DNA of 56,249 nt. It comes from Bacteroidales bacterium (lineage in GTDB: Bacteria; Bacteroidota; Bacteroidia; Bacteroidales; UBA4181). Position 1 is the stretch's first letter. Every line of letters starts with the position of its first letter. Shown here piece by piece: positions 39,329 to 44,568 of this stretch. The stretch lies in assembly GCA_031551455.1 (NCBI GenBank), contig JAVBNP010000007.1:1-56249 (forward strand), given 5' to 3'. The notes beneath the pieces were generated by a model, which worked only from the letters and a program-made list of their open reading frames with translations, was not told the DNA's origin and ran no database searches. The translations under genes were made by a program, and so were the position numbers.

Positions 39329-40555
39329 ATGGCTTTAATCAACGAAAATTTTCTCAAGTTACCCGGCAATTATCTGTTTGCGGAGATTGCCCGAAAGGTA
39401 GACGCATATAAAGCGGAGCATCCCGCACACGATATCATCAGTTTGGGGATCGGCGACGTGACGCAACCGTTGGCACCTGCCGTCATCAAGGCATTGCAGG
39501 ATGCCGTGTTCGAAATGGCTTCGGAAAAAACCATGCGGGGGTATGCACCCGACCGCGGCTATTCGTTCCTGCGGGAAGCGATCATCGAAAACGATTTCGA
39601 AGTGCGCGGCGTATACATCGATCCCGACGAAGTGTTCGTGAGCGACGGTGCCAAAAGCGACACGGGAAATATCGGCAATATTCTGAGCGTGGACAATGTG
39701 GTGGCGGTTACCGATCCCGTGTACCCCGTGTACGTGGATACCAACGTGATGGCGGGACGCGCGGGCAATTTGTCGGACGGCCGTTGGAACAACATCGAAT
39801 ATTTGCCGTGTACGGCCGAAAACGGTTTTGTTCCCGAACTTCCGCAACGACGGCCCGATGTGATATATCTCTGTTATCCGAACAACCCGACGGGCACGAC
39901 GTTGACCCGCACGGAACTGAAACGTTGGGTGGATTATGCGCTCGAAAACGATGTGTTGTTGCTGTTCGACGCGGCATACGAGGCGTTTATCACCGAAAAA
40001 GATGTTCCGCACAGTATTTACGAAATTGAAGGCGCCGAACGGACGGCTATCGAGTTCCGCAGTTTCTCGAAAACTGCCGGATTCACGGGGTTGCGTTGCG
40101 GCTACACGGTAGTGCCCAAGGAACTGACTGCATCGACATTGTCGGGCAAACGGATATCGCTTAACGATTTGTGGCACCGCCGTCAATCGACCAAGTTCAA
40201 CGGCACGGCCTACATTGTGCAACGAGCGGCCGAAGCGGTATATTCTCCCGAAGGCAAGCGACAGATTCGCGAAACCGTCGATTATTACATGGAAAACGCA
40301 CGAATCATCAAAACGAGTTTGGAAAAAGCGGGAATGCAAACGTACGGTGGCGTAAACGCTCCCTACATTTGGCTGAAAACGCCCGACGGAATGTCGTCGT
40401 GGGAATATTTCGACCGCTTGTTGCACAATTCGGGAGTCGTGGTCACACCCGGCGCCGGTTTCGGAAAAAGCGGCGAAGGATACGTGCGACTGACGGCTTT
40501 CGGTAAACGGGCAAACACGTCGGAGGCGGTGGAAAGGATAAAGAATGTAAGGTAA
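39329..40555 (+). CDS. dapL: LL-diaminopimelate aminotransferase
   Basis: [46 protein letters not shown] lysine motif [11 protein letters not shown]. Confidence 0.97.
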
Positions 40556-40592
40556 AAAGTAAGAGGTAATATCTTACACATAATCAATAAAA

Positions 40593-40661
40593 ATGAAAAA
40601 GTTAAAATTGGATTATCGATTGTATCCGCGGATTAAAAACCCCTTCGGGGGATGCGCTTAA
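40593..40661 (+). CDS. Candidate 22-aa small protein or leader peptide MKKLKLDYRLYPRIKNPFGGCA
   Basis: ATG preceded by TAATCAATAAAA, like the real starts here (dapL: AATAATAAAAA ATG); AAA-AAG second and third codons; below the ORF-track length cutoff. Confidence 0.55.
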   Translation: MKKLKLDYRLYPRIKNPFGGCA

Positions 40662-40906
40662 CCCGTGGGAAGTGACCCGAAAAGATGTCGGATAATTTCC
40701 CTTGACGGTGTCGGATCAAAAAAGAGGGTTCGCCAAGACCGCGACGAAACTTGTCCCGCACCGCTTTGAAAAGAGATCGTAACGCCTGCAAAAGTAAAAA
40801 CGGCAGGCATAGGTAAAATCACGACAAAGACGATCCGTCGGTTTCAAAAACCTTGCGGATCGATCAAAAAGGGTAAAACAATTTTTATTCAAATTTTAAT
40901 TTCATC

Positions 40907-41641
40907 ATGAACAGAACAATTTCATTTATTATAGCGGCATTGTTGGCGGCGCCCGCAACGGGCAAAACGCAATGCGATTTTTCGGCGGGAGCCGATTTTG
41001 TAAGTTCTTACGTATGGCGCGGTGTGTATACCGCCGGCACGAGTATTCAACCCTCGATGGGATTGAATGCGGGCGGATTCGGCATCGGCGCATGGGGCAG
41101 TGTGGATATCGCAGGTTCCGGATACAAGGAAGTCGACCTTTCGGCAAGTTACACCGTCGGCGGGTTCCGTTTCGGACTGACCGATTATTGGTGGGACGGC
41201 GAAGATGCGCACGATTATTTCGATTTCAAGAAGGACGAATCGTCTCATTTATTGGAAGTAAATCTCGGTTACGATTTCGATTTCGGGTTGGCGTTGTCGT
41301 GGAACACGATGGTAGCCGGCGCAGGCGATAAGTACGCGGACGGCAACGATGTCCAACGAGCCTTTTCCACTTATGCGGAAGCCGGTTATTCATATTCCGT
41401 AAAAGATGTAAACCTCTTGTTTTCTGTCGGCGCAAGCCCGTGGCGAAGCAACGTGTTGTATACCGCTTACGAGAAAGACGGGCAGATGTACGGCACCGAC
41501 GGTTTTGCGATAACGAACATTTCACTGACCGCTTCGAAAGCGATTGCCTTCTCCGACAGGTTTTCGTTACCGATCTACGGGCGATTGGCCTTCAACCCCA
41601 CCACGGAAGATGTTTTTTTCGTGTTCGGTTTCACTGTTTAA
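40907..41641 (+). CDS. Outer-membrane beta-barrel protein (TorF/Gcw_chp-like putative porin)
   Basis: Signal peptide, ADFVSSYVWRG start, aromatic alternating strands, C-terminal FVFGFTV; 20 bp upstream of glnK. Confidence 0.7.
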   Translation: MNRTISFIIAALLAAPATGKTQCDFSAGADFVSSYVWRGVYTAGTSIQPSMGLNAGGFGIGAWGSVDIAGSGYKEVDLSASYTVGGFRFGLTDYWWDGEDAHDYFDFKKDESSHLLEVNLGYDFDFGLALSWNTMVAGAGDKYADGNDVQRAFSTYAEAGYSYSVKDVNLLFSVGASPWRSNVLYTAYEKDGQMYGTDGFAITNISLTASKAIAFSDRFSLPIYGRLAFNPTTEDVFFVFGFTV

Positions 41642-41661: not shown

Positions 41662-42042
41662 ATGAAAAAGATAGAAGCAATCATACGCAAATCGAAATTT
41701 GAAAATGTCAAAGAAGCCCTGTTGGCAGCCGACATCGAATGGTTCTCGTACTACGACGTGCGGGGCGTGGGTAAAATGCAGCAAGGACGCGTATATCGCG
41801 GGATAGCCTACGACACGGGCATCATCGAACGAGTTCTTTTGAGCATTGTGGTGAGAGACATCAACACGGAAAAAACGGTGAAGGCAATACAAGAATGTGC
41901 CTACACGGGTGAAATAGGAGACGGACGCATATTTATCTATCCCGTCACCGACGCCATCCGTATCCGTACGGGCGATCGCGGCGACATTTCATTGTATGAC
42001 GCAAAGCATGAACCTCAAAAATCGTCCGGCCATGAAGCGTAA
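41662..42042 (+). CDS. glnK: P-II nitrogen regulatory protein
   Basis: MKKIEAIIR, T-loop YRG..Y, TGEIGDGRIF, IRIRTG; overlaps the amtB start. Confidence 0.93.
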   Translation: MKKIEAIIRKSKFENVKEALLAADIEWFSYYDVRGVGKMQQGRVYRGIAYDTGIIERVLLSIVVRDINTEKTVKAIQECAYTGEIGDGRIFIYPVTDAIRIRTGDRGDISLYDAKHEPQKSSGHEA

Positions 42043-43441
42043 ATTCATTATAAAAACGTGTGTTTTATTGATGTTATCGATCGCGGCGACGACAATCCGG
42101 GCGCAGGAATCGGCGGGACAAGCGATTGCCTCGGTAGAAACAGTTGTGCCGGAAGCCGTACTTGAAGTTGCCGAACCCGCCAAAGATGCTGCCGTACTCG
42201 ACAGCGGCAATACCGCTTGGATGATCGTAGCCACCATTCTTGTGATGCTGATGACTGTCCCCGGCTTGGCCTTGTTCTACGGCGGACTGGTTCGCCAGCG
42301 CAACCTGTTGAGCATTATCATGCAATGTTTCGTGTTGGCGGGTATTGTCACCATCATTTGGTTCGCCTTCGGTTACAGTTGGGTATTCGGTACCGGCTTC
42401 GCAGACAAGGATAATCTTTTGGGATTCTTTATCGGCGGGTTCGACAAAGTGTTTTTGAAAGGCATCGGCCTCAACACACTGATGGCCAGCCCCGGTATTC
42501 CCGAAATCATCTTCGCGCTGTTTCAATGCATGTTTGCTATCATCACACCCGCATTGATTATCGGGGCTTTCGCCGAAAGAGTGAAATTCTCGGGATACCT
42601 GCTCTTTGTCGTCCTTTGGTCGATAGTGGTGTACAACCCTTTGGCGCATTGGGTTTGGGGCGGCGGATGGCTGCAAAAGATCGGCGCCATCGATTTTGCG
42701 GGAGGCACCGTGGTACACATCAACGCAGGTGTTACGGCGCTCGTAATGGCCCTGCTGGTGGGGCGACGCAAAGACTATACGCCGAACCGCCCGACAACTC
42801 CGCACAATGTCACGTTTGTATTCCTCGGCGCCATCTTTCTTTGGCTGGGCTGGTTCGGATTCAACGCCGGAAGCGGTCTTGCGGCCGACGGACTTGCCGC
42901 CAACGCATTTTTGGTGACACACTTTGCCACGGCCGTAGCTGTTGTCACATGGATGGCCATTGATTGGATACGCGACAAAAAACCGACCGTCGTGGGTGCA
43001 TGTACCGGAGCGGTTGCCGGATTGGTAGCCATTACTCCCGCCGCGGGAACGGTCGACCTCACGGGAGCATTCTTCATCGGAGCCGTATCGTCGGCCGTAT
43101 GTTTCTTCATGGTGGCCGTGGTGAAAGCAAAATTGAAATACGACGATTCGCTGGATGCGTTCGGCGTGCACGGTGTGGGAGGAATCGTTGGTTCGTTGCT
43201 CACGGGCGTATTCGCCACACGGGTTATTACGGGCGAAGGCGGCGTGCAAGGAGCATTGTCGGGCGATTGGCATCAGTTGTGGATACAAACGGTCGCCACC
43301 CTTGCCACTATCGCATACAGCGCCGTACTTACCGTCATTCTTTTTCACATTGCCGACAAAACCGTAGGCATACGGGTGCTGCCGCGCGTGGAAGAAGAAG
43401 GCTTGGATATTTACGAGCACGGTGAAACCGCGTACAATTAA
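42032..43441 (+). CDS. amtB: Ammonium transporter
   Basis: Signal peptide, GNTAW, PGLALFYGG, FQCMFA, DFAGGTVVH, WFGFNAGS, DDSLDAFGVHG (twin His), GLD..EHGE.AY. Confidence 0.97.
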   Translation: MKRKFIIKTCVLLMLSIAATTIRAQESAGQAIASVETVVPEAVLEVAEPAKDAAVLDSGNTAWMIVATILVMLMTVPGLALFYGGLVRQRNLLSIIMQCFVLAGIVTIIWFAFGYSWVFGTGFADKDNLLGFFIGGFDKVFLKGIGLNTLMASPGIPEIIFALFQCMFAIITPALIIGAFAERVKFSGYLLFVVLWSIVVYNPLAHWVWGGGWLQKIGAIDFAGGTVVHINAGVTALVMALLVGRRKDYTPNRPTTPHNVTFVFLGAIFLWLGWFGFNAGSGLAADGLAANAFLVTHFATAVAVVTWMAIDWIRDKKPTVVGACTGAVAGLVAITPAAGTVDLTGAFFIGAVSSAVCFFMVAVVKAKLKYDDSLDAFGVHGVGGIVGSLLTGVFATRVITGEGGVQGALSGDWHQLWIQTVATLATIAYSAVLTVILFHIADKTVGIRVLPRVEEEGLDIYEHGETAYN

Positions 43442-43536: not shown

Positions 43537-44568
43537 ATGTTAATAATACCAAAGGACTATCATCCGACATTGGATGTTCGTCACACAGAAGAAGCCGTGA
43601 AGTTGATCAAAGACACCTTCCAAAAAGAACTTGCCGATGCATTATCGTTGCGTCGGGTTACCGCACCGCTTTTTGTCCTTTCGGGCACGGGTATCAACGA
43701 CAACCTGAACGGTGTGGAACGTCCCGTTTCTTTTGAGATTTCTTCTATCGGCCAACATGTCGAGATCGTACAATCGCTTGCCAAGTGGAAACGCATGAAG
43801 TTAGGCGCCTACAAAATCGCACCGGGCGAGGGTATTTATACGGATATGAACGCTATCCGCCCCGACGAAGAGGAATTGGATAACCTGCATTCGGTGTATG
43901 TGGATCAATGGGATTGGGAACGCACCATCACCGCGGCCGATCGCAATCTCGATTTTCTGAAAAGCATTGTCCGTAAGATTTACGGAGCGTTACGCACGGT
44001 CGAAAAAGAGGTTTGCAAGACATATCCGAATATCAAACCGTGGCTTTCGCCCGACATCACGTTCGTGCATTCGGAAGACCTCCAAGCCCGTTATCCCGAC
44101 TTGTCGCCGAAAGAGCGCGAAACAAAAGCCGCCGAAGAATACGGTTCGATATTTCTGATCGGCATCGGCGGTACACTGCCCGACGGCAAGATACACGACG
44201 GCCGTTCACCCGACTACGATGATTGGAGCACCGAAACGGGCGCCAGGCGCAAGGGCCTCAACGGCGACATCGTTCTTTGGAATCCCCTGTTAAAATGCGC
44301 TTTCGAGGTTTCCTCGATGGGTATTCGCGTCGACAAATCGGCATTGTTGAAACAGTTGAAAATACGGGGCTGCGAAGATCGTCTCGAATTGCTTTTCCAC
44401 AAAAGCTTGACGGAAGACAAAATACCGCTTTCGATCGGCGGCGGCATCGGACAGTCGCGCCTGTGCATGTATCTGCTGCATTGCGCCCACATCGGCGAAG
44501 TGCAGTCGAGCATTTGGCCCGAAAAAATGGTGGAGGAGTGTGCAGCAAGCAATATTTGGTTGAAATAG
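43537..44568 (+). CDS. asnA: Aspartate--ammonia ligase
   Basis: NDNLNGVERPV, VQSLAKWKR, HSVYVDQWDWE, HDGRSPDYDDW, SSMGIRV, IGGGIGQSR. Confidence 0.97.
   Translation: MLIIPKDYHPTLDVRHTEEAVKLIKDTFQKELADALSLRRVTAPLFVLSGTGINDNLNGVERPVSFEISSIGQHVEIVQSLAKWKRMKLGAYKIAPGEGIYTDMNAIRPDEEELDNLHSVYVDQWDWERTITAADRNLDFLKSIVRKIYGALRTVEKEVCKTYPNIKPWLSPDITFVHSEDLQARYPDLSPKERETKAAEEYGSIFLIGIGGTLPDGKIHDGRSPDYDDWSTETGARRKGLNGDIVLWNPLLKCAFEVSSMGIRVDKSALLKQLKIRGCEDRLELLFHKSLTEDKIPLSIGGGIGQSRLCMYLLHCAHIGEVQSSIWPEKMVEECAASNIWLK

Follow-up and report, generated by a model that had tools for sequence, protein, structure and literature searches.

The window, our name for the whole stretch of 56,249 nucleotides analysed here, belongs to the genome of an uncultured member of the Bacteroidales (G000). 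Downstream of a dapL-like gene it contains a structured leader with a short upstream ORF (uORF), followed by genes for a putative outer-membrane protein, a P-II protein, an ammonium transporter, and an aspartate-ammonia ligase. The features of this locus are as follows:

40593..40661, plus strand: the uORF, 22 codons (MKKLKLDYRLYPRIKNPFGGCA), with its ATG at 40593 and its TAA at 40659-40661
40640..40651, plus strand: hairpin P1, CCCC-UUCG-GGGG, inside the uORF, where it is read as the codons N-P-F-G-G
40667..40701, plus strand: P2 with an inner hairpin, P2a, whose loop carries a conserved A-AGAC motif
40708..40761, plus strand: P3-P3b-P4, an irregular long hairpin; the internal loop on its 5' side is A-rich (AAAAAAG), and the apical loop (CAAGACC) is conserved
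40764..40906, plus strand: the remainder of the leader, 3' of the core, which is variable, has species-specific insertions, and ends where the porin-like gene begins
40907..41641, plus strand: porin-like putative outer-membrane protein of 244 residues, with no Pfam family; the first gene past the leader
41662..42042, plus strand: glnK (P-II; PF00543, E 2.9e-22)
41996..43441, plus strand: amtB, ammonium transporter (PF00909, E 7.5e-123, domain from residue 74)
43537..44568, plus strand: asnA, aspartate-ammonia ligase (PF03590, E 1.4e-102)

The dapL-like ORF encodes a class I/II aminotransferase (PF00155) and follows a gene for diaminopimelate epimerase. It ends at 40555, which leaves 37 nt to the ATG of the uORF and 351 nt to the porin-like gene. 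The 22-residue ORF that a preliminary description of this DNA had reported at this distance from dapL is thus present as stated. The strong start context also ascribed to it is A-rich and indeed strong in this genome but is not kept in relatives. The 244-residue ORF has a weak match to a beta-barrel model (NF049866, E 0.025, below the cut-off) and is putatively porin-like. The coordinates of amtB are those of the ORF as listed, and its real start may be further 3'; asnA lies directly 3' of amtB in the window. A second porin-like paralogue, 56–58% identical (G000 C57:693-1391, L055; G001 C212, L054), is not preceded by such a leader. Genus g4 (L077) has the gene order dapF-dapL-porin-like-asnA, without glnK-amtB and with a gap of approximately 40 nt between dapL and the porin-like gene.

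The uORF makes up only the first third, at the 5' end, of a block conserved over about 170 nt (40593 to approximately 40763); the larger remainder is a structured noncoding RNA with covariation. This block is present in nine of the 15 genomes of one uncultured Bacteroidales genus, is single-copy in each, and always lies directly 5' of a porin-like gene followed by glnK and amtB. A BLAST comparison of the dapL-porin gap with 41 related genomes gave matches in five genomes of the same genus. Conservation in the alignment of the six closest sequences begins at the ATG and extends for approximately 170–190 nt, far beyond the stop codon; neither the sequence 5' of the ATG nor that 3' of P3 aligns among relatives. 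The leaders of G006, G012, and G008, which are more diverged members of the genus, were found by searching for the porin-like protein and taking the upstream DNA. The order dapF-dapL-leader-porin-glnK-amtB occurs in the closest group and in G013; in G006, G012, and G008 different genes lie upstream of the leader, the one in G012 being divergent. With three kinds of upstream context and a porin-like gene downstream in all nine species, the block travels with the downstream operon. In G011, glnK-amtB lies behind a plain AT-rich promoter region and has neither the porin-like gene nor the block, and no AmtB was found with the query used in G002–G005, whose assemblies are 77–90% complete.

Synonymous sites in the flanking dapL and porin genes are near saturation (pS 0.55–0.84), yet the leader core is 74–82% identical to that of the window in three species and 48–58% identical in five more. 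Judged from this contrast in sequence divergence, the block is under purifying selection. In G014 (L038) the spacer of approximately 130 nt between dapL and the uORF consists of repeats that contain AAAGTT (TATAAAGTTTATAAAGT) and occur in none of the other species.

Several observations bear on whether the uORF is coding. An ATG-started ORF runs through P1 in frame 0 in all nine leaders, compared with one of nine in frame +1 and none in frame +2; counted as four lineages, this amounts to 4/4 for the ORF frame vs 1/8 for the other frames (Fisher p ~0.01). The uORFs are 15, 17, or 20–22 codons long, and all of them read P1 as Pro...Gly-Gly, with the stop zero to two codons after. For seven pairs drawn from the six species with a gap-free uORF alignment (Nei-Gojobori, 60-nt uORF), pN/pS in frame 0 is 0.06–0.45 (Fisher p 0.0017–0.09), whereas control frames 1 and 2 of the same pairs give 0.5–1.7 with none significant; these pairs share branches, and the species are related and non-independent. 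The G000-G013 comparison, with a pS of 0.60 and a pN of 0.16, resembles those of the flanking dapL and porin genes, and the coding-like changes sit 5' of P1, outside every supported helix. The G006-G012 pair has two synonymous and six nonsynonymous changes in the uORF (pS 0.23, pN 0.14), which is no clear coding signal, and its uORF nucleotides are more conserved than synonymous sites of the porin gene (pS 0.59). We consider it likely that the uORF is translated and selected for translation.

The encoded peptide is not uniformly conserved. Its N-terminal two thirds are unrelated between deep lineages, and residues upstream of the C-terminal motif are conserved only within the six closest species. 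The sole motif common to all lineages is N-P-x-G-G at the C-terminus, found in eight of the nine species and replaced by T-P-C-G-G in G006. This motif is the invariant CCCC-loop-GGGG hairpin read as codons, so the constraints on peptide and RNA are inseparable there. Two peptide features had been singled out in the preliminary description: the PFGG end coincides with the invariant hairpin of the RNA, and the DYRLYPR core is conserved in none but the six closest species. With zero to two residues after the Gly-Gly, the peptides differ from double-glycine (GG-type) precursor peptides, and neither Pfam (E up to 0.01) nor NCBIfam (E up to 10) yielded a match. Single Asn codons precede P1 in eight of the nine species and single Gln codons in four (an internal Gln occurs in four of the five closest species); a repeated codon run is absent from all nine peptides. 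The preliminary description had noted that there is no Gln/Glu run and had on that ground set aside a classical codon-sensing attenuator. The suggestion of a leader or arrest peptide holds for the leader, with an ORF kept in syntenic loci and coding-like substitutions in six species, and arrest is a further step that we infer. Loss of the ORF at the protein level had been named as evidence that would count against it; instead, the ORF is kept in frame in 9/9.

The structure of the leader RNA was drawn by hand on a nine-sequence alignment of the core (window positions 40634–40763). The four C-G pairs of P1 are invariant in all nine species, its loop alone varies (UUCG, UACG, CUCG, or UGU), and it has zero synonymous changes, against a flanking pS of 0.55–0.84. 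Because P1 never varies, covariation is silent on this hairpin, whose 15-mer is single-copy in this genome. Helix 2 comprises 12 pairs, seven of which have changed on both sides, with 75% of cells paired, and P2 is present in both the MFE and the centroid fold of the window sequence. Helix 3 (six pairs, 91% paired) includes one position with three pair types (G-C, U-A, and A-U), and helix 4 (eight pairs, 92% paired) has six pairs changed on both sides. On the MAFFT alignment 83.4% of cells are paired vs 28–55% for slid partners, and 14 of 30 pairs have changed on both sides vs 3–10. Realignment with a covariance model gives 86.1% of 266 cells vs 28–54%, and again 14 of 30 pairs vs 2–10, an advantage over the slid controls that is inflated since the structure was drawn from the same nine related sequences. 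The covariation score after this realignment was reached by none of 500 shuffles. By its MFE, the window sequence folds no more stably than shuffles do (z = 0.14).

The distance from the uORF stop to the start of P2 is 5 nt in the window and, by our own count, 5–14 nt in relatives. By eye, the hairpin loops are 8–10 nt long and approximately 60 nt apart, and both carry the A-AGAC motif. An alternative pairing of the 5' strand of P1 (CCCCUU) with AAGGGG of the internal loop, also noted by eye, is possible in most species and has no covariation. Long-range pairs between the ORF and P2, predicted by RNAalifold from the first six sequences, had an unfavourable covariation term, disappeared with nine sequences, and were rejected. 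Rfam 15 gave no plus-strand match to window positions 40300–41200 at E up to 10 and none within five other leaders at E up to 1.

These data raise the possibility that the leader functions as RNA only, as a riboswitch-like or protein-bound element in which the ORF is a by-product, untranslated or without consequence, and N-P-x-G-G is simply P1 read as codons. Across deep lineages the noncoding part has kept its sequence better than the ORF has, P1 is invariant at the nucleotide level down to its synonymous positions, and the G006-G012 pair lacks a coding signature, all of which fit such an element. The same is true of a sister genus, g2, where three species conserve a C-run/G-run hairpin before the porin gene but not the reading frame of the ORF across it, and the A-AGAC motifs of the two hairpin loops, as seen by eye, could be paired protein-binding sites. 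An RNA-only element does not account for ORF maintenance that is frame-specific (9/9 vs 1/18), for a synonymous excess that is equally frame-specific in six species and lies outside every supported helix, or for conservation that begins at the ATG, and no Rfam family matched at the thresholds given above. We therefore regard it as rather unlikely.

A second question is which strand is transcribed into this fold. G-U cells outnumber A-C cells by 21 to 12 overall and by 15 to 4 in P3 and P3b-P4, an excess that favours the plus strand. Overall pairing is 86.1% on the plus strand vs 82.7% on the minus strand, with a structure that was drawn on the plus strand; P2 pairs equally well on either. Alternatively, the fold could be transcribed from the minus strand as a cis-antisense regulator of the leader, with P3b-P4 and the complement of the A-run forming an intrinsic terminator. 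A consensus scan does place minus-strand terminator-like sites exactly at P4 (40748-40729, then a T-run) and at P1 (40653-40639), which, together with the strand-neutral pairing of P2, counts in favour of an antisense RNA. An exact minus-strand -7-type box at 40786-40793 (CAAAAGTA on the plus strand, TACTTTTG on the minus strand) points back into the leader; of the nine species, only this one has such a box 3' of the core, a ratio of 1/9 that speaks against antisense transcription as a conserved trait. So do the G-U excess and the pairing percentages, the coding signal on the plus strand, and the fact that P3 encloses the supposed U-tract, an arrangement needless for a terminator. Taken together, we judge an antisense RNA to be highly improbable. 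From two metatranscriptome contig sets one 41-nt piece could be placed inside dapL and none on the leader, which says nothing either way on leader expression.

Between the conserved core and the porin-like gene the leader is variable. The distance from core to porin start ranges from 57 to 263 nt among species, the automated ATG being too early for G009 (78 nt). In G001 (L035) and G010 (L036), species-specific insertions of 100–200 nt lie 3' of the core and 5' of the porin ATG; they include recurrent GGAATCTTG/GAATTTG units as well as a small hairpin, GCGC-AAA-GCGC, and show that core-to-gene spacing is unconstrained. A terminator-like hairpin with a U-run occurs between core and porin gene in G012 (U7) and G006 (U5) only. 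The remaining seven of nine leaders have neither a canonical terminator nor a recognisable terminator-antiterminator pair, and a consensus scan of the plus strand found no terminator-like site in positions 40556–40906 of the window. G006 and G012 also have an exact match (TATCTTTG) to the consensus of the Bacteroidota -7 box 37–38 nt 5' of the uORF ATG. At the sequence level, these two species show a full transcription-attenuator layout of -7 box, uORF, fold, hairpin with U5–U7, and porin gene. Rho is encoded in the window's own genome (PF07497, E 2.9e-34), so a Rho-dependent read-out is possible. In G012 (L043) a second exact TATCTTTG box occurs at +182 from the uORF ATG, within the terminator-like hairpin, in its 5' arm and loop, and its surroundings resemble the promoter 5' of the uORF (ACAATGTCA-TATCTTTG); a second promoter and a duplicated segment are both conceivable explanations.

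The variable, insertion-bearing distance to the porin start and the second -7-like box of G012, with which the operon might have a promoter of its own, are also compatible with an independent small gene. Its transcript would be a dual-function small RNA or the mRNA of a small protein, and the peptide or RNA would act in trans on targets such as GlnK, AmtB, or glutamine synthetase (GS). Precedent for such activity exists in archaea and cyanobacteria, where small proteins are known to bind GS or PII. Three points count against this reading: seven of the nine species have no terminator after P3, the peptide is not conserved across lineages, which would be unusual for a partner of highly conserved proteins, and the element never occurs away from the porin operon, being absent where glnK-amtB lacks the porin-like gene. 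We find an independent small gene unlikely. The present data lend no support to a trans-acting regulator of GSIII, PII, or AmtB, the other option raised in the preliminary description.

Our preferred reading, which we hold to be somewhat more probable than its negation, is that the block serves the porin-like/glnK/amtB operon as a cis-acting regulatory leader: translating the uORF would remodel the structured RNA, through an inferred signal and read-out. Such a leader would probably constitute an undescribed on/off control of nitrogen uptake. The first part of the device would be the short translated uORF, whose last codons (N-P-x-G-G) form the very stable hairpin P1, and the second would be the folded RNA of P2 and P3-P4, beginning 5–14 nt past the uORF stop. 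A ribosome covers approximately a dozen nucleotides 3' of its A site. A ribosome arriving or pausing at the uORF end would melt P1 and cover the 5' strand of P2, making the downstream fold dependent on translation of the uORF. That fold would in turn decide whether transcription proceeds into the operon, with termination that may be intrinsic where a hairpin and U-run are present (G006 and G012) and Rho-dependent elsewhere.

A nitrogen-related signal could act on the complex of ribosome and nascent chain, as in TnaC and SpeFL, or directly on the RNA fold. Charged Asn- or Gln-tRNA is a conceivable input, since most species carry single codons for Gln and Asn immediately 5' of P1 and asnA closes the cluster; on the other hand, Asn is replaced by Thr in G006, and one codon makes a weak sensor. 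In its most specific form the cis-acting leader would be a composite nitrogen sensor: the ribosome would pause at N-P-x-G-G in response to a metabolite or to scarce Asn/Gln-tRNA, P1 and P2 would open, P3-P4 would refold, and termination, whether Rho-dependent or intrinsic, would be switched ahead of the genes for the outer-membrane channel, GlnK, and AmtB. We put this complete scheme forward as a long shot.

The logic of this model is close to that of known arrest peptides. TnaC of the tna operon and SpeFL of speF-potE are metabolite-sensing arrest peptides of Enterobacteria (PMC8450073, PMC8429421, bioRxiv 10.1101/604074). As in these systems, a short uORF occupies the 5' end of the operon leader described here, conserved residues gather at the C-terminus beside the stop, Rho is encoded in the genome, and the operon serves the uptake or metabolism of a small nitrogen compound. 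It differs from them in having no sequence similarity, in a shorter peptide whose N-terminal part is not conserved, and in a covarying RNA fold of approximately 100 nt after the uORF, which those systems are not known to have. Stalling, effector, and rut site are hypothetical in the present case.

The trp and his leaders and the Bacteroid-trp motif of Bacteroidota are classical leader-peptide transcription attenuators. Like them, this leader has an ORF (predicted to be translated) that overlaps an RNA hairpin, and two of nine leaders have a terminator-like hairpin and U-run before the first gene. Unlike them, it has no regulatory codon run, with single Gln and Asn codons only before P1, no recognisable terminator/antiterminator pair in seven of nine leaders, and a large conserved structured domain beyond the needs of an attenuator. 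A conserved RNA motif that proved to contain a uORF has been described for Corynebacterium ilvB-II (PMC10272879). To that extent the present element is similar, being likewise a conserved RNA motif that holds a uORF.

Glutamine riboswitches include the glnA RNA (RF01739) and the Downstream-peptide RNA (RF01704). With these and with the targets of ANTAR proteins our leader shares a structured, covariation-supported RNA ahead of nitrogen-assimilation genes. In contrast to the glutamine riboswitches and other nitrogen-linked leader RNAs, it has no Rfam match, and its loops of 8–10 nt, approximately 60 nt apart, are by eye not the tandem hexaloops of ANTAR targets. No match to the ANTAR protein family (PF03861) was found in G000; control genomes were equally without a match, so this result is uninformative. 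Having no codon run, no similarity to arrest peptides, and no match in Rfam, Pfam, or NCBIfam, and having in addition an RNA domain that covaries, the leader would belong to none of the leader-peptide or arrest-peptide systems compared here, and its logic appears to resemble theirs.

To our knowledge, neither the sensing of nitrogen status nor the control of ammonium uptake is well understood in Bacteroidota, and we know of no Ntr- or GlnR-type master system defined for this phylum. A literature search found no paper on a uORF, riboswitch, or other leader ahead of amtB in Bacteroidota, and one on small proteins and ribosome profiling in Bacteroides returned general resources only. A conserved, translated mini-ORF joined to a covarying fold would offer a concrete candidate cis-element for nitrogen control in Bacteroidota. 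Translation in this phylum is, as far as is known, initiated without a Shine-Dalgarno lead, and the leader shows how uORF control might work without Shine-Dalgarno pairing. If the composite sensor is real, it would be a translation-coupled nitrogen switch in a phylum that lacks a defined Ntr/GlnR master system.

The reach of the element is limited. An RNA model of the core (R1), searched against 21 genomes of the family, matched a single place in each of its nine training genomes and no further site. Across 151 genomes of the order, it gave four weak matches besides G000 (E 1.5e-4 to 4.8e-3), none of them beside porin, glnK, or amtB, and these were dismissed as false. A degenerate peptide pattern matched only G000 among 401 genomes of the order; in a species-level genome collection it returned nine stretches, four true (already-known relatives) and five due to chance, and in a metagenome contig collection ten stretches, none true. 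The element is confined to one genus: it occurs in nine species of one uncultured gut Bacteroidales genus and, by the RNA model, in none of 150 other genomes of the order, and is thus lineage-specific rather than general. The conservation that the preliminary description had proposed to look for across Bacteroidales exists within this genus, with a synonymous excess in six species.

Two kinds of leader outside the genus were seen before porin-like genes. In three species of sister genus g2 (G015 L046, G018 L075, and G019 L076), a different short leader, conserved among them, lies approximately 150 nt 5' of a porin-like gene and comprises a promoter-like TACATTTG, a perfect palindrome (TGTTCCGGAACA), a G-run, and a hairpin GCCCCC-GUCUCUGAU-GGGGG about 40 nt before the porin ATG. 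The ORF across this hairpin has 17 codons and ends in GGK-stop in G015 and contains an in-frame TGA in G019, so it is not conserved. This leader may be analogous or remotely related to the uORF-plus-RNA leader. In G026 (L045), from another family, a short ATG-started ORF with a basic N-terminus and, by eye, a hairpin (AGAAACCGGUUUCU) is found approximately 55 nt before a porin-like gene and runs into the start of that gene, which hints that a uORF and hairpin before a porin operon may recur in Bacteroidales.
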